DNA from: a virus
Lineage: Duplodnaviria; Heunggongvirae; Uroviricota; Caudoviricetes
DNA: 64,000 nt
IMG/VR virus record: IMGVR_UViG_3300032007_000003
Coordinates: 248,029 to 312,028 of that record
Strand: one strand, 5' to 3'
Part shown: positions 2,910 through 61,859 of the stretch, piece after piece
How positions within the stretch are numbered: the first letter of the stretch is position 1
How the letters are laid out: every line of letters starts with the position of its first letter
The notes under the pieces: generated by a model
What the model was told of the DNA's origin: nothing
What the model saw: the letters and a program-made list of their open reading frames with translations, nothing else
The model's database searches: none
Made by a program: the position numbers and the translations under genes

Positions 2910-2942
2910 CAAAGGAATCTTGCAGCAATAGGTATAAGCATC

Positions 2943-3011
2943 AGGCATGTAGCTCAATGGTTAGAGCCTTGGATTTTACCAAGAGATTAGGGTTCGACTC
3001 CCTACGTATCT
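2943..3011 (+). tRNA. tRNA-Lys(TTT)
   Basis: D-arm TAGCTCAATGGTTAGAGC. Anticodon stem CTTGG/CCAAG with loop ATTTTAC. T-arm TAGGGTTCGACTCCCTA. Confidence 0.65.
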
Positions 3012-3039
3012 TTGTTTAAAGGATTCCGATTTTTAACAT

Positions 3040-3196: not shown

Positions 3197-3323
3197 GGAA
3201 ACATACAGCAAGTATTAATAGGTTATAGCATTAAACTGATAATTTAAGGGTCGTTGGTTCGAGTCCAACCCTCCCCACAAAAAATTAAACTTGGGGAGGT
3301 AGCTAAGATGGATAAATGTTTCC
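3197..3323 (+). ncRNA. permuted tRNA-like element (3' half Ile-GAT-like, then 5' acceptor, closed by GGAAACA...TGTTTCC)
   Basis: Order: motif GGAAACATACAGCAAGTAT; anticodon arm TTAAA-CTGATAA-TTTAA; T-arm GTTGGTTCGAGTCCAAC; 3' acceptor CCTCCCC. A 16-nt loop and the matching 5' acceptor GGGGAGG plus a D-arm-like TAGCTAAGATGG come next, before TGTTTCC. Confidence 0.35.
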
Positions 3324-3328
3324 GAAAA

Positions 3329-3410
3329 TAGGGGAGTAACTGGTAATCGGTTTCCAACTGCATTTGGGGTGCAGGCCTTAGTCGGCATGCGGGTTCGAGT
3401 CCCGTTTCCC
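3329..3410 (+). tRNA. non-canonical type-II tRNA-like gene, paralog of 2829-2909
   Basis: Acceptor AGGGGAG/TTCCCCT. The D-arm ACTGGTAATCGGT and anticodon arm TTCCAA-CTGCAT-TTGGGG match the first copy. T-arm GCGGGTTCGAGTCCCGT. Confidence 0.4.
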
Positions 3411-3465
3411 CTACAAGTTGATGTAAATCAATAAATTACATAAATAGTATAGAGTGTTTTGAATT

Positions 3466-4868: not shown

Positions 4869-4957
4869 GGGAACTCACAGCAAGTTTAAAATGGATAATT
4901 TTTTATTTGACCAAAATGAAAATAGATAGTTCGAGCCTATCAAAGTTATAGTTCCCT
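4869..4957 (+). ncRNA. motif-initiated structured element with a T-arm-like hairpin
   Basis: GGGAACTCACAGCAAGTTT ... GATAG-TTCGAGC-CTATC ... TATAGTTCCC-TTTT. The terminal stem is GGGAACT/AGTTCCC. It is homologous to 39308-39414. Confidence 0.35.
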
Positions 4958-7164: not shown

Positions 7165-7198
7165 TCACAAACAGTTGTTAAACTGAGGAGTTGCACCA

Positions 7199-7241
7199 TG
7201 CCGTGTTAAAAGGTAATATTGGTTCGAATCCAATACACGGC
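7199..7241 (+). ncRNA. tRNA-like minihelix (acceptor stem plus T-arm only)
   Basis: GCCGTGT-TAAAAGGTAAT-ATTGGTTCGAATCCAAT-ACACGGC-T. The acceptor is a perfect 7 bp with a canonical T-arm, and there are no D or anticodon arms. The element at 26787-26827 is homologous. Confidence 0.3.
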
Positions 7242-7502
7242 TCAAATAAGAATTACATGAAAAGTTGGCGTAGTAAGCCATCTTCTAAAGAGTGGGCAGA
7301 AGCAATAGATAACTATTGTGAGTTGACATTGTAAACTCAATGGTCTGCCACCTATAATGGGGTAAAAGTCCACCCTAAGATAATAGGTGTTGGCAGTATG
7401 GCGAGGTTATGAACTCAGATTTCGGTAGGACACACGAGACTCCTTTGCCTTGAAAGGGACATCAAAGTAATTCTTTCATTAATTAAACTAAAATCTAACA
7501 AT

Positions 7503-7785: not shown

Positions 7786-7922
7786 GGAAACATCCAGCAA
7801 ATAAAGAGTTATTATTGTAAATTGCTACCGTAACGGTTTGTGGGTTCGACTCCCACACGTCTATCTTAACGAGGGCGTTGGTGAAATTGGTAAACACGGC
7901 TATTGGAGAATAAAATGTTTCC
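7786..7922 (+). ncRNA. permuted tRNA-like element (T-arm then a Leu/Ser-like 5' half; closed by GGAAACA...TGTTTCC)
   Basis: Motif variant GGAAACATCCAGCAAATAAAG, then T-arm TGTGGGTTCGACTCCCACA, then a type-II-like 5' half GAGGGCG-TT-GGTGAAATTGGTAAACAC, then AAAATGTTTCCG-TCTTTTT. Confidence 0.3.
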
Positions 7923-9942: not shown

Positions 9943-10095
9943 AGGAACGTACAGCAATCATTTACTTATTTTAAAACATTGTATTAGATTCGTAAATGAA
10001 GATAAGCGAAGCACTAAATCATAATTGCGAGGCACTTATCTATGCTCTTAGGGGCGAATGTCTAGTCATGACAGTAAATTGACCGTTCCTTTTTA
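9943..10095 (+). ncRNA. motif-initiated structured element
   Basis: AGGAACGTACAGCAATCA ... CGTTCCT-TTTTAT. The terminal stem is AGGAACG/CGTTCCT, followed by a U-tract. Confidence 0.3.
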
Positions 10096-10437: not shown

Positions 10438-10510
10438 GCACCCATAGCTCAATGGATTAGAGCACTTGTCTACGAAGCAGGGGGTTGTAGGTTCGAGTCC
10501 TACTGGGTGT
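10438..10510 (+). tRNA. tRNA-Arg(ACG)
   Basis: Acceptor GCACCCA/TGGGTGT. D-arm GCTCAATGGATTAGAGC. Anticodon loop CTACGAA, with A34 as expected for Arg-ACG. T-arm GTAGGTTCGAGTCCTAC. Confidence 0.6.
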
Positions 10511-10535
10511 ACATACTTTTTTTAAGGAGAATGTT

Positions 10536-13224: not shown

Positions 13225-13311
13225 GTTTGGATAGTCAAGAGGTCGAAGACAACAGACTGTTAATCTGTCGTGGCGTTGTCCCCATCGTAGGTTCGAATCC
13301 TACTCCAAACG
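13225..13311 (+). tRNA. tRNA with long variable arm, anticodon loop CTGTTAA (GTT?)
   Basis: Acceptor GTTTGGA/TCCAAAC. Anticodon stem ACAGA/TCTGT. An 18-nt variable region. T-arm GTAGGTTCGAATCCTAC. The identity is ambiguous. Confidence 0.4.
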
Positions 13312-13316
13312 CAATT

Positions 13317-15204: not shown

Positions 15205-15294
15205 CCTCCGTTAGTTCATCGGTGAGTGCTCGAAAGAGACGAGAACACTAGTCTTTTAAACTAGGTGTGGTTGGTTCGACTCCAACACGGAGGA
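15205..15294 (+). tRNA. tRNA-Lys(TTT)-like with a 25-nt D-loop carrying an extra hairpin
   Basis: Acceptor CCTCCGT/ACGGAGG (perfect). D-stem GTTC/GAAC encloses ATCGGTGAGTGCTCGAAAGAGACGA. Anticodon stem CTAGT/ACTAG with loop CTTTTAA. T-arm GTTGGTTCGACTCCAAC. Confidence 0.4.
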
Positions 15295-15306
15295 CAATTT
15301 TCATAT

Positions 15307-16427: not shown

Positions 16428-16509
16428 GGGTACACACAGCAAGTATGAATTTACACTTCAAGCAGACTGTCAATTTGTGTAACGTGGGTTCGATTCCTAA
16501 CGGTGTATA
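16428..16509 (+). ncRNA. motif-initiated tRNA-like element
   Basis: GGGTACACACAGCAAGTAT ... T-arm GTGGGTTCGATTCCTAA. The acceptor-like pairing is GTACACA/GGTGTAT. Confidence 0.3.
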
Positions 16510-16573
16510 AAAAATGCACTTGTTTGTACAACATTTCAAAAGTTCGTGATATTTATATATAAATGTCGAACAA

Positions 16574-17491
16574 ATGAAACAATATAAATATAATTATTTC
16601 TACAGGATAGAAAATTTAATTGATGGTAAATTTTATTACGGAATCCACAGTACTGACAATATTGAAGATGGATATATGGGTTCTGGGCATCGTTTAGTAG
16701 AAGCGATGAAAATTTTTGGGAAAAATAATTTCAAAAAAGAGATATTAAAAAATTTTGAAACACGTGAGAAGGCTTCGGAATATGAGGCATTAATGGTGAC
16801 AGAAAATTTAGTTCACGATAGAAATTGTTATAACGTTAAATGTGGTGGCGATTATGGCACTACTAGTGGAACAATATTAGTAAAGGACAAAAACGGAAAA
16901 TGGTCTAGAGTGTCGGTTGAAGATGAACGTTATAAAAGTGGCGAACTAAAGAATATAATGGCTAGTTTAATATCAGTGTATGATAAAAAAGATAACGGTT
17001 ATAAGACAATAACACCAGACGAATTCCATAGCAATGGCGATAGATATATTGGGGTAACAAAAGGGAAAGTGGTTGTCAAGAATGACAAAGGTGAAATATT
17101 ACTTGTTGATGTTGAAGATGAACGTTATAAACGTGGTGAATTAACTGTGGTGTGGAAAGGAAAAAAACATTCAGAAGAAACAAAGATGAAAATTTCTGAG
17201 ACGCACAAAAGAAACCATCACCAACAAGGCGTAAGTAATTCACAATATGGAACGTGTTGGATAACAAAAAATGGAGAAAATAAAAAGGTAAAGAAAGAAG
17301 ATTTGAATATGTTTTTGTCTGATGGGTGGAAAAATGGTAGAAGTAATTTAAATGTTACAACACCTTCAGATTTAATAGATAAAAATAAAGTTATTAGTTT
17401 ATACAAGAAATATAATAATTGGGGTAAAGTCGCTGAAGAATTAGGAATTAGTAGAATGACAATAATGAGGTACAAGAAACGCAACCTATAA
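16574..17491 (+). CDS. GIY-YIG homing endonuclease with C-terminal HTH
   Basis: 'YFYRIENLIDGKFYYGIHS' is the GIY...YIG module. The C-terminal 'NWGKVAEELGISRMTIMRYKK' is HTH-like. Confidence 0.65.
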   Translation: MKQYKYNYFYRIENLIDGKFYYGIHSTDNIEDGYMGSGHRLVEAMKIFGKNNFKKEILKNFETREKASEYEALMVTENLVHDRNCYNVKCGGDYGTTSGTILVKDKNGKWSRVSVEDERYKSGELKNIMASLISVYDKKDNGYKTITPDEFHSNGDRYIGVTKGKVVVKNDKGEILLVDVEDERYKRGELTVVWKGKKHSEETKMKISETHKRNHHQQGVSNSQYGTCWITKNGENKKVKKEDLNMFLSDGWKNGRSNLNVTTPSDLIDKNKVISLYKKYNNWGKVAEELGISRMTIMRYKKRNL

Positions 17492-17535: not shown

Positions 17536-17618
17536 GCTGGGGTGGCTGAGAGGTTGAAAGCACTGGCTTTGTAACCCAGAGGCGAAAGCCCACGCAGGTT
17601 CGAATCCTGTCCCCAGCT
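17536..17618 (+). tRNA. type-II tRNA (Ser/Tyr-like D-arm), anticodon loop region CTTTGTAAC unresolved
   Basis: Acceptor GCTGGGG/CCCCAGC (perfect). D-arm GGCTGAGAGGTTGAAAGCA. Variable arm GGCGAAAGCC. T-arm GCAGGTTCGAATCCTGT. Confidence 0.5.
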
Positions 17619-17627
17619 CTAAAAAAT

Positions 17628-17754
17628 GGTGACGTAGCTCAGTCGGTAGAGCACTAAAAAATCAACGTGTTGCCTCGTGTGCGCAACCCACAGCAAATAT
17701 TATGATGAAAGGCTGTTAACCTAGGGGTCTGTGGTTCGAGTCCACACGTCACCG
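17628..17754 (+). tRNA. interrupted tRNA (about 55-nt insertion after the D-arm carrying the CCACAGCAAATAT motif)
   Basis: 5' GGTGACG-TA-GCTCAGTCGGTAGAGC and 3' TGTGGTTCGAGTCCACA-CGTCACC pair perfectly across 126 nt. An Asn-like CTGTTAA loop lies before the T-arm. Confidence 0.45.
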
Positions 17755-17760
17755 CAACTT

Positions 17761-17833
17761 GCCTCGTTAGCTCAGTTGGTAGAGCGTCACTTTAGTAATG
17801 TGAATGTCGGGGGTTCGAGTCCCTCACGAGGCT
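17761..17833 (+). tRNA. tRNA-Thr-like (anticodon loop TTAGTAA; AGT?)
   Basis: The acceptor GCCTCGT/ACGAGGC is identical to Thr(TGT) at 16220. D-arm GCTCAGTTGGTAGAGC. A34 is unusual. Confidence 0.45.
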
Positions 17834-18029
17834 CAATGGAAGAAAGGAAATGTTATTACGTCTGTTGCTTTATTGAGGGCATAGAGAAGACGATAGAAAT
17901 GCCTCCTAGGACTGGTCCTTTGACTTTACAAGAGGCAGAAGATGTTAGAAAGAGGAAAAGTAGTGGTAGGTATCGTAGAAAACTAAGATATAGGATTCTA
18001 GATGCAGAGAAAAATGAAATAGTAATATT

Positions 18030-19226: not shown

Positions 19227-19297
19227 TGTGCGGATAGTACAATGGTGAGTACAACTTCTTATACAAGTTAATTGGGGTTCGAGTCCCCACCGCATGC
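19227..19297 (+). tRNA. tRNA-Ile(TAT)-like second copy
   Basis: Anticodon stem AACTT/AAGTT with loop CTTATAC. T-arm TGGGGTTCGAGTCCCCA. The acceptor TGTGCGG/CCGCATG relies on G-U pairs. Confidence 0.4.
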
Positions 19298-19323
19298 TGA
19301 ATTTAAGAAAAAAAGAAGAAAAA

Positions 19324-19986
19324 ATGATAGTTGCTTTTGATACATACTACTATAACGGTTACTCATACACAGTGGCTGGAGTTTTTAAGTCATGGAATGA
19401 CAAAGAGGTAGCATATTACGCCACTAGTAAGAGGATGTGTATTGATGCAGACTATAAACCAGGTGAACTCTATAAGCGTGAGCTTCCATGCATTATGCAG
19501 TGTTTGGCACTATTACCACTTAAGGACATTACCCTTATCATGGTAGATGGCTTTGTATGGCTTTCTGAGGATGGAAAGACATTAACAAAGGGACTAGGTG
19601 CTCATCTTCAAGAGGCAATACTTGAGAAATATGGTGAGAAAATAACAGTTGTAGGCGTTGCCAAGAACAGATATCATGTGGAGATACCAGATTGCTATGA
19701 TATTGAGCGTGGTTTGGAATCAGCAAAGCCATTATTTGTGACATGCAGTGAACCTTGTCTTGCAGAACATTATTCAAATATGGTGAAAATCATGCATGGT
19801 GATTATAGAATACCATCAATATTGAAAGCTGTTGATACTAAAACAAGGGAACTTGGACATGAGGATAGTGATGAAATTGAAAAAGAACTTGAAGAAGAAT
19901 ATAATTCAAAGCCAATAGATATCTCAATGGGAGACATTGATGAATTCATGGCTACTTGTACTAAAAACGGATTTAAATATAGATAA
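19324..19986 (+). CDS. hypothetical protein
   Basis: The ORF is tracked from 19294, but that start lies within the tRNA 3' end, so the next ATG was used. Confidence 0.45.
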   Translation: MIVAFDTYYYNGYSYTVAGVFKSWNDKEVAYYATSKRMCIDADYKPGELYKRELPCIMQCLALLPLKDITLIMVDGFVWLSEDGKTLTKGLGAHLQEAILEKYGEKITVVGVAKNRYHVEIPDCYDIERGLESAKPLFVTCSEPCLAEHYSNMVKIMHGDYRIPSILKAVDTKTRELGHEDSDEIEKELEEEYNSKPIDISMGDIDEFMATCTKNGFKYR

Positions 19987-22418: not shown

Positions 22419-22551
22419 GGAAACAGACAGCAATGGTTATTTTTTAATAAGCCTTGTAAGCAGTAGGTCATGGGTTCAAATCCCATCGAGGGGTGTAAGC
22501 TCCTTGTAGCTCAGTCTGGTTTAGAGCAACTTAAAATGTTAAAAACGTTTC
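22419..22551 (+). ncRNA. permuted tRNA-like element (T-arm, 3' acceptor, then 5' acceptor plus D-arm; GGAAACA...CGTTTCC)
   Basis: GGAAACAGACAGCAATGG ... CATGGGTTCAAATCCCATC-GAGGGGT-GTAA-GCTCCTT-GTAGCTCAGTCTGGTTTAGAGC ... CGTTTCCG-ATTTTTAA. Confidence 0.3.
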
Positions 22552-22577
22552 CGATTTTTAATTAAAACGAAATAGCA

Positions 22578-24843: not shown

Positions 24844-24999
24844 ATGAAAAAAGTTCCTAAAAAATTTGGAATTCTCAAAAAAAAGATATATCTTTGCAAA
24901 GTTGGAACGAAATAAATGAGGAAACTAACAGCAAACATTTAAACATCAAACTGCTAATTTGAACAACGTTTAAAAAGTTTCCGTTTTATATATAATATC

Positions 25000-25070: not shown

Positions 25071-26164
25071 CAAATGTAACATAAATACTCAGGTGCAATC
25101 GGTAGTAAAGGTTGGCGAGGAAAGTGAGGTTGCGACAAACATACAACCGTATGAAATAAAGCGGATGTCCTTTACCATTAAATTGGTTCTGTAAAATGAA
25201 TCAGCCTTTACAATGTTACATACAATATACTTGGAAGATACCAGAGGAGAAACGGTAGTGTAACAACTAACGGTGTAGACAAATGGGCATCAAGTTCGTG
25301 CTTAGTGTGCTCTTTCGAGAGCTTCGGTGATTCAAATTCACCTCGTTCAACAACTCTCACATTGTAGGCTTCGGCTGAAAATGAGGAGTTTGGCTAGCTT
25401 TCGTAGCCAAATGAAGGATAATCCAGTGATGGGATTAAATGTGATGTGAAGTTGACCATAGTAGCATTACAGATATGTAGGGGCAACCCTATGTATTTCA
25501 CTGAAAAGCATATGGCACGGTCTACATTGGGGGTAACACCTTGGATGTAGGCTCTCAAGGGCTGAATGTCTTTGAGTGAGTGGTAACACAATAGATTGTC
25601 ATATGGAACTTGATGCAATAATCACCAGTTGGCGTGTTGGGTTCAGTTATGTGCTAGTCTTAAGTAGAAATGCTTGAGAACCGTAAGGCTGATAGTATGT
25701 AATAGCAATTGGACTTGTGGTGAGTCTTTGTAGGGAGGCGATTTCGTGGGTCGTGCTCAAAAGGCACGAATGCGATGGGTCGCACCTCGTCTTCCAATGG
25801 TCGCAGAAAAGGTTTGAAATTAATAGGGTTCAAAAGTTTACAAAGCAAAAGTGTGCGACACTAGGCAGCTAAAATGCACTTATCCTTCTGCAATATGAAG
25901 GGGTTGGGGACTCGCAAGGAATCCAACAAGAGAGTAAAAGTACTCGTCTGAGTTAGTAGGAGGCATCCTATGAATCCGCAAGAGCTTGGCGAAGAACTGA
26001 AATCTATGATGCTGTACCGAAAGGTTTAAACTAGTAAGTGTTTGGTTGTTTTCGCAAAACCTCCGTGCATGGTGTCTACGGCTATCGTAAGGTAGCGTGT
26101 GAACAACAACGTCCAACCGTTGTGAAATGGCATCAACAATAAGACAATGTTCTCAGTCTTTTTG

Positions 26165-26297
26165 TGTTTATATAGGGATATAGCTCAGTGGTAGAGTAAT
26201 TTTGTTGCGATTTAAGCTATACACAATACTAACTTCGGAACGTATTGATGCTTTAACTGATAATGAAACGGTCATTGGTTCGAATCCAGTTGTCCCT
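26165..26297 (+). tRNA. interrupted tRNA-Ile(GAT)-like (about 53-nt insertion between the D-arm and anticodon stem)
   Basis: 5' AGGGATA-TA-GCTCAGTGGTAGAGT; 3' TTTAA-CTGATAA-TGAAA-CGGTC-ATTGGTTCGAATCCAGT-TGTCCCT. The acceptor pairs across 133 nt. Confidence 0.4.
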
Positions 26298-26459
26298 GCG
26301 TACCGTGATTATGATGCTTCCACGTATGATAAGCATCTTACTTATTATAGTAGGTTAACATGCTATAGTAGATTGGAGAAGTTTTGGCTACTAATTGTGG
26401 CTAGTAAAATGAAAGTTTTCATCCAATCGTTTTTTATACGGCTTAATATTTAATTATAT

Positions 26460-27038: not shown

Positions 27039-27303
27039 CATAAAACCTACGATGTAGGCGTAGATATGAAAGCGTGGGCACATTTGTCGCAAGGGTTCAC
27101 ACTAAGAAGAATGTAGGGAGAGATATGTAACAATGTCTATGCAGTACCACTAGCGTATAGAATACTATTTCTTTCGATGCTGCCTAATGGTGTGAGAAGC
27201 ACTCTGTGAAGTTCCTATGAGTGGATAGGTAAAAATAAGTCTTCAGCAGAGGTTAAGCTAGATTCCTGATAAATCATATCCGTAGGTTTTTTAAAGATTG
27301 TGG

Positions 27304-27381
27304 AGTAGAGAAGTAGTTAAACTCGCTAGGCTCATAACCTAGTCCCATGTGGTTCGTGGGTGCAAATCCCACCTCCGCTAC
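27304..27381 (+). tRNA. tRNA(CAT) Met/Ile2-like
   Basis: Anticodon stem CTAGG/CCTAG with loop CTCATAA. T-arm GTGGG-TGCAAAT-CCCAC. Acceptor AGTAGAG/CTCCGCT at 6 of 7 pairs. Confidence 0.45.
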
Positions 27382-27386
27382 AAATA

Positions 27387-27440
27387 GGAAGCTCACAGCA
27401 ATATTATATAGATTGCAACTCTAGGTTTAACATAGCTTCC
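27387..27440 (+). ncRNA. motif-initiated hairpin element
   Basis: GGAAGCTCACAGCAATATT ... AGCTTCC-GCTTTTT. The terminal stem is 7 bp. Confidence 0.3.
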
Positions 27441-28380: not shown

Positions 28381-28456
28381 TGGGCATATGGCAGAGTGGT
28401 CGATTGCAACGGCTTCTAGGACCGTAAAAGGCGTGGGTTCGAATCCTACTATGCTC
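28381..28456 (+). tRNA. candidate amber-suppressor tRNA (anticodon CTA)
   Basis: Acceptor GGGCATA/TATGCTC. D-arm GGCAGAGTGGTCGATTGC. The anticodon stem ACGGC/ACCGT (C-A mismatch at 31-39) with loop TTCTAGG gives CTA. An alternative is a 4-bp stem with the 9-nt loop CTTCTAGGA. T-arm GTGGGTTCGAATCCTAC. Confidence 0.4.
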
Positions 28457-28840
28457 ACTACGGCTTGGCGTACCCATATTGGGTGCTGAAATAGGTTAGA
28501 CAAGCACAAGCCACGTAAGAAATGGCAGACATGCAGTAATGCGGTGCGAGGATTAGTCCCTTGCCCTAGTTCCTTGATGGTTAAGAGGATACCTTTATGG
28601 TTGGTATAGGCAAACCTATTTTATGTTATGGCAAGCGAAAATAAAAAGAAAAAAGCAAAGAATTCTTATTTAGCCAATGCTAATAAGACTACTGATAAAT
28701 TGAAGAGAATTAACTTTTACAATAAGATAAATAGAGCAGAAAATAAGTGTAAAGTTAAGGATTGTTAAAGTTGAATTAATCATTTGGTTGGTTCAACTTT
28801 TTTTCGTATCTTTACATCAGAAATTTAAAAACAAGGAAAT

Positions 28841-29857: not shown

Positions 29858-30349
29858 ATGGAAATAGAAGAATTGGCAAAGAGAGTAGCGTTTGCTCTTA
29901 TGGATAAGAACTATAAGATTGCAACTGCTGAAGAGTGTACTGCTGGACTTGTTGGCGCTGCTATTGCAAGTCAAGACTATGCTCAGAGGTGGTATAAGGG
30001 TACTATTGTTACATATGATGAAGCTAGTGCTTGTAAAGTTTTAGAAGTTCAAGACTACACCATTAAAAGGAATGACTTTGTTAGCACTCAAGTGGTGAGT
30101 CAAATGGCATTAACAACATTATATAGGTTTGATGTAAATATTGCATTGGCAATTAATGGGTATGTTGATGGATATGGAAGTACCAATGTTCCAGCTGGGG
30201 ATGTACAAATCTGTGTAGCAAAATTAGTTGGAAAATCAGTGTCTTTCAAAAATAAGAAGCTGTTAGTTAGAGGAAAGGATAGAGGGAAGAATATTGAAGA
30301 AGCAATTAAGGAGGCTCTTATCCTTATAATGGAATCAATTGTAGATTAA
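29858..30349 (+). CDS. CinA C-terminal domain protein (PncC-like NMN deamidase)
   Basis: 'IATAEECTAGLVGAAIAS ... GTIVTYDEASACKVL ... VVSQMA' matches the CinA_C pattern (AESCTGG...G.V.YS...VS..A). Confidence 0.55.
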   Translation: MEIEELAKRVAFALMDKNYKIATAEECTAGLVGAAIASQDYAQRWYKGTIVTYDEASACKVLEVQDYTIKRNDFVSTQVVSQMALTTLYRFDVNIALAINGYVDGYGSTNVPAGDVQICVAKLVGKSVSFKNKKLLVRGKDRGKNIEEAIKEALILIMESIVD

Positions 30350-30350
30350 T

Positions 30351-30734
30351 ATGGAAGGTTGCGCATTTTGTGATATAGAGAAAAGAATAGATGAATCGAG
30401 AATAATATATCAAGATTCAACTTGGATTGCGATATTAGATGGGTATCCAGTTTCAGAGGGGCATACATTATTAATACCAAAGAGACATTGTGAAACATAT
30501 TTTGATTTAAATTATCTTGAACTTGAATCTCTTGGCGTAACAATTGGTATTGTTAAAAGACTATTGGATACCAAATACCATCCAAATGGATATAATGTGG
30601 GAGTTAACTGTGGTGAGGCTGCTGGTCAAACCATCATGCATTGTCATGTACATATCATACCACGTTATAATGGTGATTGCGAAAATCCTAGAGGTGGTGT
30701 CAGAGGTGTTATACCAAATAAGATGTCATATTAG
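30351..30734 (+). CDS. HIT-family nucleotide hydrolase
   Basis: The histidine triad 'HCHVHIIPR' and an upstream 'HTLLIPKRH'. Confidence 0.65.
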   Translation: MEGCAFCDIEKRIDESRIIYQDSTWIAILDGYPVSEGHTLLIPKRHCETYFDLNYLELESLGVTIGIVKRLLDTKYHPNGYNVGVNCGEAAGQTIMHCHVHIIPRYNGDCENPRGGVRGVIPNKMSY

Positions 30735-31588: not shown

Positions 31589-32422
31589 ATGAAGAAGTTT
31601 TTAACAATGTTTTCATTCGTCATTATGTTGACGATGAGTATGACAATGACATCTTGTATCGGTTGCACAACAGCAAATGCTGACGAGGAAATTGTTTTGA
31701 TTGACAAGCCTTGGTTCTTAGGTCATGGTGGTGTACAAAGTGAACCAGTTGAAACTGGTCTTGAGTGGATTTGGTGGTCTACTGACACAGAGACTTTCAA
31801 GATTGTGCCTTTTAAGCATCAAGTGGATATGGATGATTTGTTCAGTGATGACAATACTCCGTTGGATTTCCATACCATTATAATTACACAGATTCAAAAG
31901 GGTAAATCACCAATTCTATTGCAGAACTACGGTACTGATTGGTTCAATACCAACCTTTATAATTACTACTGCAATCTTGTGCGAGACCATATTTCACAGC
32001 ATAGTCCATTTGACCTTATGTCGAATCGAGCGATTCTGAATGAGATTGATGCAAAGGTGCTTAAGCAGATGCAGAGTTATGTGGCTGAGTTATCCAAGGA
32101 GAAGGAGTTTCCAGTAACGGTTCGCCAAGTAACTATTGGTAAGGCAATTCCTAACAAGGAGCAGCTTGCGGAAATGAATAAGACAGCGAAGGCAGTGCAA
32201 GCAAAGCAGACTCAAGAGCGACAAGTTGAGGTTGAGTTGGCTCGTGAGAAAGCTGAGAGACAGAGAGCAAAGGCTGATAAGGCTTATAGGGAAGAGCTTG
32301 GTCTTAGTACGCAAGACTTCATTAGTTTGAAGTGGATTGAGACTATCGCAGCTAAGAATGGCGCAAATATTGATGTGATGGTTGGTGGTGGTTCTACCCC
32401 AATGTGGAATATCAAACATTAA
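31589..32422 (+). CDS. lipoprotein with C-terminal coiled coil
   Basis: Signal/lipobox ...MTSCIGC. The C-terminal K/E/Q/R-rich coiled coil is AKAVQAKQTQERQVEVELAREKAERQRAKADKAY. Confidence 0.45.
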   Translation: MKKFLTMFSFVIMLTMSMTMTSCIGCTTANADEEIVLIDKPWFLGHGGVQSEPVETGLEWIWWSTDTETFKIVPFKHQVDMDDLFSDDNTPLDFHTIIITQIQKGKSPILLQNYGTDWFNTNLYNYYCNLVRDHISQHSPFDLMSNRAILNEIDAKVLKQMQSYVAELSKEKEFPVTVRQVTIGKAIPNKEQLAEMNKTAKAVQAKQTQERQVEVELAREKAERQRAKADKAYREELGLSTQDFISLKWIETIAAKNGANIDVMVGGGSTPMWNIKH

Positions 32423-32631
32423 TAATACAAGGATGGGCGAGTTTTCCTTTTTTAACAAGACATTAGGGTGAAGTGTCTTTAAAAAACTCGTAAGATTGGC
32501 TTGTCTTAAGGAGCTGAGTGGGTTGTCGGAATTCGACTCTGTGGGGTGAACTAAACCGTCTCGTTAGCTGAGTACAGCCGTTGCCTTTGGGGAAGTGAGC
32601 AACATACTAGTTAAAATCATTTCCCCATTTT

Positions 32632-32718
32632 TATATCTCCTTCGTCTATCGGTTAGGACACCTAGGGGTAACTCACGTGGTAAGAGAGGTTCGATTCCTC
32701 TAGGAGATTCTATAGCAG
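32632..32718 (+). tRNA. tRNA-like (perfect acceptor and T-arm, interior unresolved)
   Basis: Acceptor ATCTCCT/AGGAGAT. T-arm AGAGGTTCGATTCCTCT. It is 87 nt long. Confidence 0.3.
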
Positions 32719-32992: not shown

Positions 32993-33129
32993 GTGCGGTT
33001 CGTCTAGTGGTTCAGGACAACGTTTAAAAAAGTTTTTTAACGTTTCCGTTAGGAAATAGACAGCAGATGTATTATTGAAAAATTATGCATTCCAAGCCGT
33101 AAACAGAGGTTCGAATCCTCTACCGCACT
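32993..33129 (+). tRNA. interrupted tRNA (Glu-like D-arm; about 70-nt insertion with ...CGTTTCC-GTTA-GGAAATAGACAGCAG...)
   Basis: 5' GTGCGGT-TC-GTCTAGTGGTTCAGGAC; 3' AGAGGTTCGAATCCTCT-ACCGCAC. The acceptor pairs perfectly. The insertion holds a hairpin and the motif pair. Confidence 0.4.
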
Positions 33130-39087: not shown

Positions 39088-39199
39088 AGGGAGATAGTGT
39101 AACGGTAACACGCTGTAGTTTCCGTTACCTTTGAGGTAACATTACAGCAGTCGTTAGGAAAATAGCTTGTGGTGCCAGTATTGGAGGTTCGAATCCTTC
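39088..39199 (+). tRNA. interrupted tRNA (insertion carrying TTTCCGTTACC-TTTGA-GGTAACATTACAGCAG)
   Basis: 5' AGGGAGA-TA-GTGTAACGGTAACAC; 3' GGAGGTTCGAATCCTTC-TCTCCCT. The acceptor is perfect. GCTGT...ACAGC flank the inserted hairpin. Confidence 0.35.
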
Positions 39200-39212
39200 T
39201 CTCCCTACAAAA

Positions 39213-39305
39213 TGGCGAGGTGGCAGAGTGGTCTATCGCACTTCTCTCATAAGGAAGCGGGTTTAAACTATACCCACCGTTGGTTCAAATCCAACCCTCG
39301 CTACC
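39213..39305 (+). tRNA. type-II-bodied tRNA with anticodon CAT and encoded CCA
   Basis: Acceptor GGCGAGG/CCTCGCT. The D-arm GGCAGAGTGGTCTATCGCA is shared with the CTA tRNA at 28381. Anticodon stem CTTCT/GGAAG with loop CTCATAA. Long variable arm. T-arm GTTGGTTCAAATCCAAC. It ends A-CCA. Confidence 0.45.
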
Positions 39306-39307
39306 AA

Positions 39308-39414
39308 GGGAACTTACAGCAAGTATAACTCGTGAAGGAATGGTCTACTTGAAAGTCTAGAAAACTTTTGCGCATTTGCGCTTGTGGGTTCGAATCCCAC
39401 CGACTATAGTTCTC
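39308..39414 (+). ncRNA. motif-initiated tRNA-like element (type-II-like)
   Basis: GGGAACTTACAGCAAGTATAA ... AAAGT-CTAGAAA-ACTTT ... GCGCATTTGCGC ... GTGGGTTCGAATCCCAC-CGACTAT-AGTTCTC-GTTTT. Confidence 0.3.
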
Positions 39415-41018: not shown

Positions 41019-41573
41019 ATGGATAAGAAATTGGTTAACCAACCTTGTTATGACAAAGAAGGAAACCTTATTGGGTGGTTTAGCCGTTCAATGGCATCTG
41101 CAATCTTCATCTATTGTAGAGACAAAGATGGCGATTGGTGTGTTCTTGCGTCAGAACGAGGTGAAGAAGCTGCTGATTTTAGAGGCTTTTGGAATTGCAC
41201 ATGTGGTTATTTAGATTTTAATGAAACAACCAAAGATTGTGCAATGAGAGAACTTTATGAGGAAACTGGACTTCTTATAGATGAAGGGTTAGTTAAACTA
41301 GTAGGTTATGAGGACAGCCCAGAAGCTAACAGACAGAATGTCACATTCCGTTTTGCAGCTTTCATTGAGGATGCTATTACAGATGAATTTACATTCTCTA
41401 GGAAGAATAACGAAGGAAAAGAAGTTGGAGAGATTAAGTGGATTAAAATGTCAGATGTTGATAAATACATGTGGGCATTTAACCATGATAAGCGTATTAA
41501 GGAAATCTTTGAAACTAGAGAGGTGAAACCCACATTGGTTGATAAGTTAAAGCGTTGGATTAGAAACAAGTAA
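41019..41573 (+). CDS. Nudix hydrolase
   Basis: The Nudix box 'GGYLDFNETTKDCAMRELYEETGL' fits GX5EX7REUXEEXGU. Confidence 0.65.
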   Translation: MDKKLVNQPCYDKEGNLIGWFSRSMASAIFIYCRDKDGDWCVLASERGEEAADFRGFWNCTCGYLDFNETTKDCAMRELYEETGLLIDEGLVKLVGYEDSPEANRQNVTFRFAAFIEDAITDEFTFSRKNNEGKEVGEIKWIKMSDVDKYMWAFNHDKRIKEIFETREVKPTLVDKLKRWIRNK

Positions 41574-56302: not shown

Positions 56303-57697
56303 ATGGAATTATTCAAAGAAGATAAACATAAAAAGCTTTTAAAGAAGTTACAAGATTGCATTAAGGGCACTGCATTTGAAAATAACGTCTATCTTGTAGG
56401 TGGTTGTGTGAGAGACGCTTTGCTAAATGAACCCATTAAGGATTTTGATATTGTGGTATCAATAAAAAATGGTGGCATTATGCTTGCTAACCTATTGGCT
56501 GCAAAGGAAAAGTGCTATAAATTGGGTAGCAATCCAGTGGTATATCCCAAATACGGTACTGCAAAGGTTACTCTGTATAATGATGAAGACCTTAAGGACT
56601 TGGACATTGAGTTTGTTCAGACTCGTAAGGAGCAATATCATGAGGATAGTAGAAATCCAGAACAAGTATTTGGTACAGTTGAAGAGGATGCAAAACGCAG
56701 AGATTTAACCATCAATTCATTGTATTATAATATAAGTGATGAAAAGATATATGATTTTAACTTAGGTATTGATGACTTGGTTAATCAAGTTATTAAAACA
56801 CCGACTGACCCAGATATCACATTCAATGATGACCCATTACGTATATTGAGGGTTATCAGATTCTCTTGTCGTTATGGATGGGGTATTGAAAAGAATACTT
56901 GGTTAGGTATGGTTAAGAATGCTCATCGTATTAAAATTATCTCACAAGAGAGAATCACTGATGAAATTTCAAAGATTATAACTAGTCCAAACCCTTCAGT
57001 TGGTATAAGGAAAATGTTGTTCTGTGGTCTTCTGAATAAGGTGATGCCAGACATATATGACTTAACCAATGCATATGAATCAAGGAATCCAATGCTAACG
57101 TCATTTGACCATACCATGATGGTTCTTGATAAGGTACAGCCTTATATTGAGACTAGATTGGCTGCGTTATTCCATGATGTTGGTAGAATCGCAAGTGAAG
57201 CCAATAGAGGAATCTCACAAGATTTGTTTAGTGCTGATGTGGCTGTTTGTGACTTGAAACTCATGAAGTTCCCAAATGCAATAGCAGATTCTGTTGAGAA
57301 TTCAATTAAGTATCATAGATTCTTTAGAAACTATGCTGATGGTACTGTTCCACCAGATAAGAAGATAAGAAAGTTCATCAACTTATGTGGTGACAACATT
57401 GGGAACGTTGTTGACTTGATGAATGCCAACAACTTGTGTCAAACTTATGACAAGAAAAAGAGACAAGCATTGGACATTCTGAATAGGATTGAAGAACTTG
57501 ATGAGCTTGAAGAGGCTAAGAATGTTAAACTACCCATCGATGGAAAAGATATCATGAAGGAGTTTAATCTTAAGTCTGGACCTCATATTGGTAAACTTAT
57601 GGATTGTTTGAAGGAAGCTTACTTTGATAATCCTAAAATTACTAAAGAAGAGTGCTTTAAGTTGATAGAGGAAAAGATAAAGGTCTTGGCGGTATGA
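56303..57697 (+). CDS. cca: CCA-adding tRNA nucleotidyltransferase with HD domain
   Basis: 'VYLVGGCVRDALLNEPIKDFDIVV' is the class-II nucleotidyltransferase head. An 'LFHDVGR' HD motif is present. Confidence 0.75.
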   Translation: MELFKEDKHKKLLKKLQDCIKGTAFENNVYLVGGCVRDALLNEPIKDFDIVVSIKNGGIMLANLLAAKEKCYKLGSNPVVYPKYGTAKVTLYNDEDLKDLDIEFVQTRKEQYHEDSRNPEQVFGTVEEDAKRRDLTINSLYYNISDEKIYDFNLGIDDLVNQVIKTPTDPDITFNDDPLRILRVIRFSCRYGWGIEKNTWLGMVKNAHRIKIISQERITDEISKIITSPNPSVGIRKMLFCGLLNKVMPDIYDLTNAYESRNPMLTSFDHTMMVLDKVQPYIETRLAALFHDVGRIASEANRGISQDLFSADVAVCDLKLMKFPNAIADSVENSIKYHRFFRNYADGTVPPDKKIRKFINLCGDNIGNVVDLMNANNLCQTYDKKKRQALDILNRIEELDELEEAKNVKLPIDGKDIMKEFNLKSGPHIGKLMDCLKEAYFDNPKITKEECFKLIEEKIKVLAV

Positions 57698-57859
57698 CAA
57701 CTGCCAAGTCTTTTTTCTTTAATATATTTCTTTTTTAAGTATATAATATTATTATATATTAATTAAAATATATTATAATATATTAAAAAATAATAAATAT
57801 CTCAATAATATTTTTTATTTAGGAAAATTTTTCGTATATTTGCAAAAAGTATAAACAAC

Positions 57860-58090
57860 ATGGGAACATTATGTAAGAATTGTCCCGTAAGGGATATACG
57901 TAAGAAAACTGGAGAACCTTGTACCATTGCTTTTGCAACTAGGTACGGAAATAGTTGTGTTAACCTCGACATAACAGAACAATTGTTCAATAAAGAGTTA
58001 GAGGAATTCTCCAAGAAGAAAAAGACTGAAGCCAAAAAGGTTAATAAACCTAAGACAACAAAGAAAAAAGAAACTATTAAAACAGAATAA
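57860..58090 (+). CDS. Cys-rich small protein with basic K-rich tail
   Basis: CKNCPV ... CTIAF ... C, then a KKKKTEAKKVNKPKTTKKK tail. Confidence 0.35.
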   Translation: MGTLCKNCPVRDIRKKTGEPCTIAFATRYGNSCVNLDITEQLFNKELEEFSKKKKTEAKKVNKPKTTKKKETIKTE

Positions 58091-58093
58091 AAT

Positions 58094-58669
58094 ATGGGAA
58101 GAAAAATTTTAATTATCGTTGATGGTCAATACAGCTTTATTGAGGGTGGCTCTTTAGCAGTAGAGGGGGGCAGAAAAGCATTAGATAATCTTGTAGAGTT
58201 CATAAAGAACCATTATAAAGAATATGATGGTATATTCTTAACTGCCGATTGGCATCCAATTACCCACTGTTCTTTCAAAGATAACGGTGGTATCTGGCCT
58301 CCTCACTGTGTACAGTTCTCACAAGGTGCAGCGATATATCAACCAATTCTTGATGTATTAGATGAATTAAGGATTGATTATGATGTTCTCACCAAGGGTT
58401 GTGATGAAGACCATGAAGAGTATTCAATCTTCAAGAATGTTACTTCTGAGGCATACCTTAAGGCAATGAATAAACACAATGAGATTGGGGTTGTTGACAT
58501 TGCTGGAATTGCTGGTGATTATTGTGTCCTTGATACAATAAAGGATGGACTCATGGAATTTCCAAATACTGAGTTCCATGTTATCAATGAGTGTGTTGCA
58601 TCCATTGATGGTGGAGCAACTTTAAGTAAATTCGTTGATGAAAACGAGAGAGTATTATGGCACGAATAG
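58094..58669 (+). CDS. pncA: nicotinamidase / isochorismatase-family hydrolase (PncA-like)
   Basis: 'ILIIVDGQYSF', 'TADWHPITHCSF' and 'WPPHCVQFSQGAAI' match PncA signature blocks. Confidence 0.7.
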   Translation: MGRKILIIVDGQYSFIEGGSLAVEGGRKALDNLVEFIKNHYKEYDGIFLTADWHPITHCSFKDNGGIWPPHCVQFSQGAAIYQPILDVLDELRIDYDVLTKGCDEDHEEYSIFKNVTSEAYLKAMNKHNEIGVVDIAGIAGDYCVLDTIKDGLMEFPNTEFHVINECVASIDGGATLSKFVDENERVLWHE

Positions 58670-58878
58670 AAGTTGATTTAGCGGAATATCAAGGCATGAG
58701 AAACAAGATTAAGAGCTTGGAATCTGCCTTGAATTCTGTATCTGTTGAGGCTGCTACCAATAAGGAGATTATCGAAAATATCAAAGCTTTGGTAGTTGAC
58801 CTTGAGAAAGAAGGATTTTTAAATCGTTTATTTGCTTGGAAAAATGTCATTAAACCATTTAAAGAATTATTAACATAA

Positions 58879-58916
58879 AATTTTTGGTAGATTTGATATT
58901 TTTTCGTATCTTTGCA
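58879..58916 (+). promoter_or_regulatory. conserved promoter copy
   Basis: TTTTTGGTAGATTTGATATTTTTTCGTATCTTTGCA. Confidence 0.45.
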
Positions 58917-59392
58917 TGGAGAAATTAACATTAGATGTATTTAAGCATTTTAGGTTCTTCTTGAAAAAGAACAAGATATATGACCTATTTATGCGGAATT
59001 TCAGAAGCCAACCATATGAGAAGATTCATAATGTAGATGCATTCTTACCTAATTACATAAACATAATGAGAGAGTATTCTACAACACGTATGGGTAAAGA
59101 ATATCTCAGTGTATATGGAGCGATGTATCTAACGTTTAGGTCTTTTTGTTGGGCGAATAGAGCAGCATATAAGACACCAAATTCATGGAGCAAGTATTGG
59201 GCTACTATTTGTTTAAAATGGGCACTATATTGCATTAGGCATAATATTGAGATATGCACAGACGAAGACCTTGGCAGACTTATAGAATATTGGGATTCAT
59301 GCAAGTGGATTGACATAAGCAAATTATCATTTCAAGATAGAATAGTTATACAACAATTAAAGTGTAAACACAATAATGGAGACATATACTAA
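58916..59392 (+). CDS. hypothetical protein
   Basis: 158-aa ORF. Confidence 0.4.
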   Translation: MEKLTLDVFKHFRFFLKKNKIYDLFMRNFRSQPYEKIHNVDAFLPNYINIMREYSTTRMGKEYLSVYGAMYLTFRSFCWANRAAYKTPNSWSKYWATICLKWALYCIRHNIEICTDEDLGRLIEYWDSCKWIDISKLSFQDRIVIQQLKCKHNNGDIY

Positions 59393-60323
59393 AATAGATA
59401 CAATGCTAAAAAGATATATCTTTGATGGCAAGGAGTGTCCGAATAAGGATTGGTTGAAGTTCAAGAATAAGATTATCCTTGGCGAGTTCTCATTTAATGA
59501 GGCTGAGTATTTGTTCAATTGTCTTTGGGAAGCCACAAGTAAAATAGACGGTACAAATTCCAAGATTGCTTTCTTTCCTTCAGATGGACACATCGAAGTA
59601 GGTGGCAAGACCGACAAAGCTAGTTCACAGCATGGACAGTTTGAAATGCTCCAAGAGATTGGTGAGCGTATCAAGCCACAACTCTGCGCTATGTTCCCCA
59701 AGGAGTCAGCACGTTTTGTTCCAGTTAAGGGAAATGACAATAAGGTACAGTATTATGACGTACATGCTGATTTTAACGAGTATGACGAAAAGACTATGAT
59801 TGCTAAGTTGCAAGCCAAGTTCGATAAGAAGGATACTGTTATATCAGAAGGCTTATATGGTGTGGAACTTGAGGAAGTTCCTATCTACATCTACGGTGAG
59901 TATTTCGGTACTGGTATTCAGAAGTGTGGTTCTCGTTACATTCAGAATGGTAACGGCTTCCGTGTATTCGACATCAAGCAGCAAGGTTGGTGGTTGCCAA
60001 AGGAAAATCGTGATGCAATGTGCAAAGGTCTTGGTCTTGAGCAAGTACCATTCTTGGGCGTTATGACCTTGCGTGACATTGAGGATATGGTTCGTAGTGG
60101 TTTCACCACAAAGTTTGAGGGGGCTGCTGACCCAACCATGATTGAAGAGGGTATTGTAGCACGTCCTATCATTCCTCTTTGTAGTGGTAATGGTAATCGT
60201 ATTATCGTTAAGGTAAAGTATTGCGATTACATTGAGTATGACACTGTTCGCAAACAGTTCTCTGATGAAGAGTTTGCTGAGTTCGATAAGTGGTATCATG
60301 AGAATATTGAAAATAAGAAATAG
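59376..60323 (+). CDS. ATP-dependent RNA ligase (Rnl2-like nucleotidyltransferase)
   Basis: Motif I 'SKIDGTN' (KxDG without the Arg typical of DNA ligases). Motif IV-like 'EGIVARP'. Motif V 'VKVKY'. Confidence 0.5.
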   Translation: METYTKIDTMLKRYIFDGKECPNKDWLKFKNKIILGEFSFNEAEYLFNCLWEATSKIDGTNSKIAFFPSDGHIEVGGKTDKASSQHGQFEMLQEIGERIKPQLCAMFPKESARFVPVKGNDNKVQYYDVHADFNEYDEKTMIAKLQAKFDKKDTVISEGLYGVELEEVPIYIYGEYFGTGIQKCGSRYIQNGNGFRVFDIKQQGWWLPKENRDAMCKGLGLEQVPFLGVMTLRDIEDMVRSGFTTKFEGAADPTMIEEGIVARPIIPLCSGNGNRIIVKVKYCDYIEYDTVRKQFSDEEFAEFDKWYHENIENKK

Positions 60324-60595
60324 TATATGAGAGATTTAACAAGGGTACTATTAAGGTCACTCATGTTTATTTTCCTACTTGTTGGATGTGGTGGTAACAT
60401 CTACTATATGTCTAGCATAACTAGTGATAACCAGTATGCTAGATATAATAGTAGAAGAACCCATTCAACTGTTACGTATGATGAAAATGGATATAATGAG
60501 TACCAACAGCCTCAGTCAGACACAATCAGTATTAATTCAGATGATGACGAGAGAGAATATTTAGATTCAAGACCTACTAGGCAATTTTACTACTG

Positions 60596-61455: not shown

Positions 61456-61471
61456 AATAATAAAAAAAAAC

Positions 61472-61855: not shown

Positions 61856-61859
61856 AAAA

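Follow-up and report, generated by a model that had tools for sequence, protein, structure and literature searches.

Introduction

Archaea and a few eukaryotes have split, interrupted and permuted tRNA genes, whose products are matured by cutting and rejoining. For bacteria and bacterial viruses, to our knowledge, only the self-splicing group I tRNA introns are understood. Here, we analyse a 64,000-nucleotide stretch (positions 248,029 to 312,028, hereafter the window) of IMG/VR record IMGVR_UViG_3300032007_000003, which is part of a roughly 410 kb genome of a huge, gut-type phage with a Bacteroidota host. In this window, tRNA genes are interrupted or enclosed by a short element that we call the handle, composed of a hairpin followed, after 2-3 nt in the inserts, by the heptamer ACAGCAR. 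An initial annotation had described five tRNA loci with extra sequence and suggested that they may form a class of mini-intron with boundaries defined by a motif hairpin.

Disrupted tRNAs in archaea and eukaryotes include non-canonical bulge-helix-bulge (BHB) introns, split genes (Nanoarchaeum, Caldivirga) and permuted genes (Cyanidioschyzon, Thermofilum). As with the handle, one local RNA signal serves introns (including at position 29/30), permuted genes and leader-trailer stalks. Their permuted genes also have the acceptor strands connected by a short linker, and the joined parts again make up a canonical tRNA, as they do here in silico. The present system differs in belonging to a Bacteroidota phage, in allowing no BHB to be drawn, in using a 6-8 bp stem plus ACAGCAR located 2-26 nt off the junctions, and in having no EndA-type enzyme seen in the 64 kb.

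Several bacterial systems share individual features with the window. Bacterial group I tRNA introns likewise place an intervening sequence in a bacterial-type tRNA gene with homing endonuclease genes nearby, whereas the inserts described here are 49-64 nt rather than roughly 200 nt or more, have no catalytic core or Rfam match, and lie in the anticodon stem instead of the loop. In YrlA RNA (RF02553), the 5′ and 3′ ends pair into a stem that closes off a permuted tRNA-like module (T-arm, acceptor hairpin and D-arm), whereas the units in the window keep a complete anticodon arm, have a different stem sequence and are accompanied by no Ro60 gene that we could see. Two-piece tmRNA from permuted ssrA is a further bacterial example of a permuted tRNA-like gene processed from one precursor, but its pieces remain unjoined, it is a different RNA and it has no motif in common with the handle.

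Among phages, the Lak megaphages contain "enigmatic" tRNA introns of 80-114 nt that are conserved across cohorts and lack an Rfam match (Devoto et al. 2019, PMC6784885). The likeness to our window extends to huge phages with Bacteroidota hosts and to Gly-UCC and Thr-UGU among the affected tRNAs. However, the Lak inserts interrupt the anticodon loop at 37/38 and consist of a hairpin with a nested mini-tRNA or T-arm, without the ACAGCAR handle, and permuted genes were not reported (PMC6784885). We found nothing in the literature on permuted or split tRNAs in phages, the Lak introns being the sole phage precedent found, and the Jug phage paper (PMC12880540) does not discuss tRNAs. The anatomy of the handle and of the interrupted and permuted genes is new for phages and bacteria.

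Results

Three tRNA genes are interrupted by a handle insert

All five loci of the initial annotation are confirmed as genuine tRNA genes carrying extra sequence, although they do not form the single class that had been proposed. Instead, they fall into three kinds: handle inserts (17628, 32993 and 39088), the locus at 26174 and the locus at 15205, the last two having inserts unrelated to the handle. The boundaries 17628-17754 and 32993-33129 are retained, whereas the second locus starts at 26174 rather than 26165 and the fourth ends at 39207 rather than 39199. Perfect acceptor pairing, which had been ascribed to all five, fails at 26174 (one G-U). The four larger inserts measure 54 nt (17628), about 55 nt (26174), 64 nt (32993) and 49 nt (39088). 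They had been placed between the D-arm and the anticodon or T-arm; all four lie between the D-arm and the anticodon loop, and none directly before the T-arm.

The handle lies within each of three inserts, all on the + strand and all interrupting the 5′ strand of the anticodon stem. The interrupted tRNA-Asn(GUU) at 17628-17754 comprises exon 1 (17628-17655), an insert (17656-17709) and exon 2 (17710-17754), with the junction at 28/29. Its handle (17669-17696), which had been missed earlier, pairs GTTGC (17669-17673) with GCAAC (17683-17687), followed by CC and ACAGCAA (17690-17696). The interrupted tRNA-Gly(UCC) at 32993-33129 (exon 1 32993-33022, insert 33023-33086, exon 2 33087-33129; junction 29/30) contains a handle at 33042-33066 that is built from GTTTCC (33042-33047), a GTTA loop, GGAAAT (33052-33057), AG and ACAGCAG (33060-33066). 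The third gene, at 39088-39207 (exon 1 39088-39115, insert 39116-39164, exon 2 39165-39207; junction 29/30), joins a Gln-type body to the anticodon GUG, and its handle at 39124-39150 consists of GTTACCT (39124-39130), a TTG loop, AGGTAAC (39134-39140), ATT and ACAGCAG (39144-39150). Thus, the motif hairpin noted before in 32993 and 39088 is present in both and also in 17628, whereas 26174 lacks it. The joined products are predicted to read GTAGAGCACT followed by AGGCTGTTAACC for 17628, CAGGACAACG followed by GCATTCCAAGCC for 32993, and TAACACGCTG followed by GCTTGTGGTGCC for 39088.

Despite their inserts, these loci retain the features of tRNAs. The Rfam tRNA model RF00005 (gathering score 29) scores 47.1 bits on 17628-17754 with 65 nt skipped and 41.6 bits across the insert of 26174-26298. 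No tRNA tool called 32993-33129 or 39088-39207; read from the sequence, both have 7/7 acceptor pairs, a D-arm and a GGTTCGAATCC T-arm. When the inserts are deleted in silico, ARAGORN calls Asn-GTT (73 nt), Gly-TCC (73 nt), His-GTG (71 nt) and Ile-GAT (72 nt), and all five joined constructs (the four interrupted genes and the permuted Thr gene described below) pass as canonical tRNAs. In addition, GGTTCGANTCC occurs 40 times against 0.01 expected and the split stems covary in orthologs, which together exclude chance.

The junctions were placed using the anticodon stems in the window and in fragments of related phage contigs that served as orthologs (L-numbers below; hyphens mark junctions). At 32993 and 39088, a perfect 5-bp stem forms only with the junction at 29/30 (ACG-GC with GCCGU and CUG-GC with GCCAG). 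At 17628, the stem is CU(A)...(A)GG/CCUAG in the window and CU...UGG/CCAAG in L248; nucleotide 29 therefore belongs to the part downstream of the insert, which sets the junction at 28/29. The L247 ortholog has GCG-GA/UCCGU, which puts its junction at 29/30. Nearly all anticodon-stem pairs have changed compensatorily between the window and L247 (CUAGG/CCUAG to GCGGA/UCCGU) in an otherwise identical tRNA, which rules out random decay at this locus. The hairpin of the handle (P1) covaries as well (GUUGC/GCAAC to GUUAC/GUAAC in L247), as does the helix that flanks it (AUCA/UGAU to AUUCA/UGAAU). The covariation of the split stems over the break shows that these genes are not pseudogenes in decay, the outcome against which the initial annotation had wanted its loci checked. 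We also observed that the replacement of the anticodon stem at 15205 and 17628 relative to L247 looks like diversifying selection or cassette exchange.

The other two genes are retained in relatives. The insert of 32993 is kept in L241 and in L242/L155, and the L242 ortholog of 39088 is identical. The 39088 anticodon is GUG in the window and L242 and UUG (Gln) in L241, and comparison with intact Gln and His genes identifies its body as Gln-type (D-arm, loop context, A73 and no G-1).

The handle is a covarying hairpin with a conserved heptamer

At least 14 handles are present in the window, exclusively on the + strand, and others occur in related phage contigs. In most, the element is opened out as GGRAAC(N)-N-ACAGCAR ... 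26-160 nt payload ... (N)GUUYCC, a leader-trailer stem around circularly permuted tRNAs, tRNAs of normal order but odd form, pieces of tRNA or small RNAs of other kinds; a U-run directly follows the 3′ strand in about 60% of cases. The initial annotation had proposed that the insert hairpin is a circular permutation of the outer stem at permuted loci. Both layouts are observed, and this claim is correct because the open and closed forms share the same element.

The stem of the handle covaries. In a motif-anchored table, the pairs two positions before the motif are AU (9), UA (21), GC (11) and GU (2), and stem variants include GGAAGCU/AGCUUCC, GGAAUC/GAUUCC and GGGUACA/UGUACCC. In this AT-rich DNA, a random 7-bp partner is found within 340 nt 29.5% of the time, and the evidence for the handle is therefore its sequence context and covariation. 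Outside ACAGCAR, there is no strong conservation. AU-rich spacers of 2-26 nt separate the hairpin from the tRNA junctions, and the 17628 junction shifts from 28/29 to 29/30 between orthologs, which does not fit the proposal that the hairpin marks the insert boundary. A second helix beside the handle is predicted to be stable in some members only.

Several further properties of the handle were explored. The apparent pairing of ACAGCAAG with exon 1 in 39088 does not generalise, and its complement, TTGCTGT, is absent from the GOLLD-like RNA of the window (see below) and not enriched on the + strand. A search for GGAAAC-N1-3-ACAGCAAGTAT in bacterial and archaeal genomes gave at least 120 matches, and all those listed look like chance occurrences in coding DNA, with none in a tRNA or handle context. 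Some handle units are preceded by TAnnTTTG promoter boxes of the Bacteroidota type. A promoter role for the handle itself was rejected, as the distance from the box to the stem ranges from 10 to 32 nt and the stem covaries.

The open handle surrounds permuted tRNAs and other payloads

The best supported permuted gene is tRNA-Thr(UGU) at 22419-22552 (+ strand), in which the 5′ strand of P1 (22419-22424) and ACAGCAA (22427-22433) precede the tRNA and the 3′ strand of P1 (22547-22552) follows it. The order is 3′ part, linker, 5′ part, with the break at 29/30. In an alignment of seven phages, all 27 pairs are 100% paired and 10 show compensatory change, which none of 500 shuffles matches. The covarying pairs include two across the permutation point and 5/7 in the acceptor stem, and the anticodon loop (UGU) is invariant. 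The re-joined construct, predicted to read TAGAGCAACT followed by GCCTTGTAAGCAG at its junction, is called as tRNA-Thr by ARAGORN. In L028 and L032, the permuted gene fills a slot of a packed Val-Thr-Ile-Ala-tmRNA cluster, and no second Thr gene was seen in the fragments of distant relatives with this cluster.

Permutation is not restricted to this gene. Among 16 parsed permuted units, 15 have 6-7 of 7 acceptor pairs and linkers of 4-20 nt; the sixteenth, L032_8839, was mis-registered in parsing and is outside the 15. The Thr-UGU and Gly-UCC genes are broken at 29/30, a second Gly group and the Thr-like unit at 7786-7922 at 31/32, and the Ile, Asp and His-anticodon families in the D-loop. The permuted Thr and Gly genes are kept in several clades and are conserved core members of the arrays. 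In the window, a permuted tRNA-Ile(GAU) at 3197-3323 (+ strand; GGAAACAT 3197-3204, ACAGCAA 3205-3211, ATGTTTCC 3316-3323) is broken in the D-loop or at the edge of the D-stem, and the unit at 7786-7922 (+ strand), a permuted tRNA resembling Thr(UGU), has a long variable arm, the motif variant CCAGCAA (7794-7800) and an L248 ortholog. The permuted tRNA-Asp unit at 16428-16573 is truncated in the window just before a GIY-YIG gene (open reading frame (ORF) 16574-17491) and is intact in L247 and L077.

The open handle also encloses RNAs other than permuted tRNAs, all on the + strand. At 2914-3027, it forms the leader and trailer of a normal-order tRNA (GGAATC 2914-2919, GCAGCAA 2922-2928, GATTCC 3022-3027) with a 6-nt anticodon loop (AUUUUA), for which ARAGORN gives the two-base anticodon "tt" and which has orthologs in L025 (position 1413) and L028. 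At 39308-39414, a normal-order Sec-like fold (Rfam tRNA-Sec 31.2 bits, gathering score 47) is enclosed in the same way, with P1 and orthologs seen. Smaller payloads are an anticodon-stem-loop-like hairpin alone at 24920-24982, which has a Bacteroidota-type promoter upstream, a similar hairpin at 27387-27440 (handle GGAAGCT/AGCTTCC) with orthologs in L241, L242, L243, L244 and L245 that differ in their loop triplets, and a T-arm-like hairpin alone at 4869-4956. Two payloads are not tRNA: a 53-nt sequence at 1392-1466 (GGGAACA/TGTTCCC) and a structured RNA of 125 nt at 9943-10090, which lacks an Rfam match and is kept in distant relatives (L028, L032, L070 and L077) at 125-150 nt.

Other unusual tRNA genes accompany these units. 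Normally short-armed tRNAs (Thr, Asn, Met and Pro) carry long variable arms or other extensions, being 79-96 nt each (17536-17619, 13225-13312, 27299-27381, 39214-39306, 2829-2910 and 3330-3414). At ~32625-32710 and ~7185-7245 in the window, and at ~9880-9960 in L243/L245, there are tRNA-like genes with intact acceptor, D and T arms in which a short non-anticodon hairpin replaces the anticodon arm, as well as an acceptor/T-arm minihelix. A tRNA with anticodon CUA (amber suppressor type; ARAGORN label "Pyl") at 28382-28458 is conserved in relatives. On the - strand of L065, a more distant relative, there is a tRNA-Sec-like gene above the Rfam threshold (497-583; 49.5 bits) and a 123-nt tRNA with another large insert that lacks the handle (1934-2056).

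Two further tRNA genes carry unrelated inserts

The tRNA at 26174-26298 (+ strand) has an Asn-type body (G73) and the anticodon GAU, which is GAU or GUU depending on the phage. Its insert, at about 26199-26251 and without ACAGCAR, leaves the junction ambiguous between 26/27 and 29/30. The insert forms an irregular hairpin, AAGC...CAAUAC-UAA-C(UUCG)G-AAC-GUAUUG...GCUU, that is conserved in seven phages; in their alignment, the helices around the C(UUCG)G loop covary and 11 predicted pairs show compensatory change. A GOLLD-like RNA (25733-26159; 79 bits, E 5.5e-19, gathering score 150) ends 15 nt before this tRNA. The fifth locus, tRNA-Lys(UUU) at 15205-15295 (+ strand), has no handle and, as reported in the initial annotation and read directly here, a 25-nt D-loop with an internal hairpin (CUC-GAAA-GAG). 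ARAGORN calls its 91 nt as "Ser aga". In L247, the gene is identical save for a compensatory swap of four anticodon-stem pairs (CUAGU/ACUAG to UCGCU/AGCGA).

The inserts match no known intron or RNA class

The inserts had been judged too short for group I or II introns, and at 49-64 nt and with no matching Rfam intron family this judgement stands. The core P3-P9 of a group I intron usually takes 200 nt or more and Intron_gpI does not match, neither at its gathering score nor with E up to 5; in addition, group I introns in bacterial tRNAs need a site in the anticodon loop, whereas covariation fixes the present sites in the stem at 28/29 or 29/30. For group II introns, which have six domains including domain V, the size is wrong and the inserts start with AAAAAA, UUUAAA or UAGUUU instead of the 5′ GUGYG; the one D1-D4 match is at chance level (E 0.42). 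A BHB comprises two 3-nt bulges that hold the splice sites on either side of a 4-bp helix; the best among 100 registers per locus has 6-7/10 pairs, which 71-93% of shuffles equal, and an EndA/Sen-type endonuclease has no Pfam match among the about 60 ORFs of the window (64 kb of the ~410 kb genome). YrlA (RF02553), which has a gathering score of 69, reaches 29.5, 39.3 and 41.1 bits, and a Ro60/TROVE domain is not found among window ORFs. These weak YrlA scores, as well as the tRNA-Sec score, arise because the payloads are tRNA-like. Known ribozymes (hammerhead, twister, pistol, hatchet, hairpin and HDV-like) have no Rfam match, whether over 42 kb (E up to 5) or over 400 nt (E up to 10), and the handle belongs to no Rfam family, either at gathering scores or with the cut-off relaxed to E 5-10. 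By eye, the Lak-type tRNA introns of Table S6 differ in position and content.

The genomic setting

The first 40 kb of the window form a one-strand array of more than 42 tRNA genes and one tmRNA, with free-standing HNH or GIY-YIG endonuclease genes dotted through it, at least five of them between tRNAs. No deposited phage genome is a close match to the window, and the window proteins are 75-95% identical to those of IMG/VR contigs of 295-413 kb and about 100 kb. The ACAGCAR motif is also found in further tRNA-array phage contigs of 217-401 kb. Overall, the handle occurs in related contigs of 217-413 kb.

An Rnl2-type RNA ligase gene (59376-60323, + strand; Pfam PF09414 E 2.2e-15, PHROG 548 "RNA ligase" E 3.7e-19) and a CCA-adding enzyme gene are located 20 kb from the array. 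The ORFs flanking the ligase have no Pfam, PHROG or PDB match, and a 158-aa ORF beside it has just 8 close homologs. Genes for NAD salvage (CinA, NUDIX, nicotinamidase-like and NAPRTase; 29858-30734, 41019-41573 and 56303-63104) are grouped with a HIT protein, the CCA-adding enzyme and the RNA ligase. The array also contains A34 tRNAs for Arg, Thr and Leu (10438-10512, 17761-17834 and 32316-32411) and, in its middle, an Endonuclease V-like ORF (19294-19986; Pfam E 5e-7, a match that PDB sequences do not confirm). Endonuclease V cleaves beside inosine, and A34 is converted to inosine.

Discussion

Our analysis leads us to favour, tentatively, a reading of these sequences in which the handle would be an RNA-level processing signal and the disrupted tRNA genes would be matured by cutting and rejoining. 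In this mechanism, the handle would mark where the transcript is cut and where the ends of the payload are brought together. As an open stem, a leader-trailer pair, it would surround a circularly permuted tRNA; closed by a short loop, it would sit in a normal-order tRNA as a mini-intron (17628, 32993 and 39088). In both layouts, an endonuclease reading the stem and the adjacent ACAGCAR strand may detach the handle, after which the AU-rich variable spacers would be trimmed to the tRNA body. The resulting ends would be juxtaposed by the opposite anticodon-stem strand (28/29, 29/30 and 31/32) or by the D-arm and sealed by a ligase, for which the Rnl2-type enzyme of the window is the putative candidate. 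The acceptor end would then be completed by RNase P and RNase Z together with the CCA-adding enzyme of the phage. An arm at 28-30 would sit on the face of the anticodon stem that is contacted by the 30S P site, and the handle arm should therefore have to go if these tRNAs are to decode.

Several observations point to cutting and joining. Deleting the inserts or un-permuting the genes restores canonical tRNAs, and the two halves of the anticodon stem covary over the 17628 insert (CUAGG/CCUAG in the window, CUUGG/CCAAG in L248 and GCGGA/UCCGU in L247). The L241 ortholog of 39088 is a tRNA-Gln(UUG), an isoacceptor without an intact gene among those called in the window and the L241/L248 fragments. 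In addition, the stem of the handle covaries, the permuted Thr gene keeps its UGU loop and its place in the Val-Thr-Ile-Ala-tmRNA cluster, the permuted Thr and Gly genes are core members of the arrays, a single signal covers the insert, the permuted gene, the leader-trailer stalk and the payload fragments, most breaks lie where the opposite strand would offer a sealable nick, and genes for an Rnl2-type ligase and a CCA-adding enzyme are carried in the window.

Other observations weigh against this interpretation. A phage endonuclease, which the initial annotation had suggested seeking among the hypothetical ORFs, yielded no candidate for handle cleavage in the window, which holds only the weak Endonuclease V-like ORF and homing-type HNH and GIY-YIG genes. 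Given the handle-junction distance of 2-26 nt and the weak flanking helix, it is difficult to see how an enzyme bound to the handle would cut precisely, and the idea of trimming to an exact nick is speculative. D-loop breaks would give a nick-sealing ligase no template strand, and the handle encloses non-tRNA payloads as well. In addition, every interrupted gene in the window has an intact isoacceptor there too, 39088 in the window joins a Gln-type body to a His anticodon, and anticodons drift among orthologs (39088 GUG/UUG; 39308 AGA, AAA or ACA; 26174 GAU/GUU). Versions without the insert, for which comparison of orthologs had been proposed, were not found for 32993 or 17628 by exact-match search of IMG/VR.

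The main rival explanation is that the handle stays on, and that the units are stable, non-decoding tRNA-derived small RNAs that combine a protein-binding stem and bulge with tRNA modules, either YrlA-like or acting as decoys for host tRNA-directed nucleases. We consider this unlikely, though it accounts for some features. The permuted units have a YrlA-like architecture (29.5-41.1 bits, sub-threshold), some payloads are limited to an anticodon stem-loop, a T-arm or non-tRNA sequence, a Bacteroidota-type promoter of their own precedes some units and a U-run follows the 3′ strand in about 60%, and intact isoacceptors duplicate interrupted genes whose anticodons drift and whose anticodon stems are swapped among orthologs. 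However, the YrlA score is far under 69 and no Ro60/TROVE was found in the window; the handle position varies (D-loop, 28/29, 29/30, 31/32 and acceptor end), which is unexpected for a fixed architecture; and the permuted Thr and Gly genes have canonical, invariant anticodon loops with covariation over the full cloverleaf. Alternatively, the handle may be a processing stalk that is cut off without rejoining, leaving two-piece tRNAs or halves held by pairing. Two-piece tmRNA from permuted ssrA (RF04321) is a bacterial precedent, the handle also surrounds normal-order tRNAs for which joining is not required, and U-runs trail the 3′ strand of the stem. Such an outcome appears improbable, as a tRNA nicked in its anticodon stem or D-loop would probably be a weakened decoder, a ligase able to seal duplex nicks is encoded nearby, and the position of breaks at sites templated by the opposite strand would be left unexplained.

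Three further explanations invoke debris, a ribozyme and a DNA-level element. That the units are non-functional debris or a selfish miniature element spread by homing endonucleases, leaving scrambled tRNA pseudogenes, would fit several observations: at least five free-standing HNH/GIY-YIG genes among the tRNAs, a unit (16428) truncated beside a GIY-YIG gene, tRNA fragments, and orthologous spots holding tRNA-like genes without a proper anticodon arm. Yet the acceptor, T, anticodon and handle stems covary across phages whose proteins are only 75% identical, and permuted Thr and Gly are conserved in several clades, making this account quite improbable. Hammerhead and twister ribozymes typically show natural circular permutation, and a two-helix element with a conserved junction strand in two circular permutations, often directly 3′ of a tRNA like some phage ribozymes, may recall a small self-cleaving and perhaps self-ligating ribozyme. 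The conservation, however, amounts to only about 7 invariant bases and one stem, the inferred junctions lie 2-26 nt from the conserved bases, and no Rfam ribozyme matches, even when short stretches are searched with E up to 10; we regard such a ribozyme as very improbable. Finally, many copies of a short inverted repeat with a conserved heptamer in one orientation might act in DNA as a hairpin promoter, an attC-like recombination site or the ends of a miniature transposon. The core consensus of integron attC sites is RYYYAAC/GTTRRRY, which the handle does not fit. In addition, the arms covary instead of holding one sequence, they flank structured RNA payloads at a spacing of 40-160 nt and share the orientation of transcription, and the distance to the promoter box varies from 10 to 32 nt, so that a role in DNA seems scarcely credible.

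Taking cutting and rejoining as the favoured reading, a broader proposal can be made, with greater reserve. Bacteroidota huge phages may possibly run their own tRNA cut-and-join pathway that depends on neither BHB motifs nor self-splicing, in which a dedicated factor would read the 6-8 bp stem plus ACAGCAR and a phage RNA ligase would mature mini-intron, permuted and stalked tRNAs. The Lak "enigmatic" introns have been unexplained since 2019, and the window and its relatives provide many covarying examples tied to one RNA signal, so that the splicing question is directly testable. Should joining not occur, the handle-bearing molecules would form a new family of phage small RNAs derived from tRNAs, with the handle as its defining feature. 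If joining occurs, it would constitute a new RNA processing system and would explain why standard finders under-count phage tRNAs. Ultimately, if the proposed pathway is true, it would be the first protein-dependent tRNA splicing, and these would be the first permuted tRNA genes, in the bacterial world.

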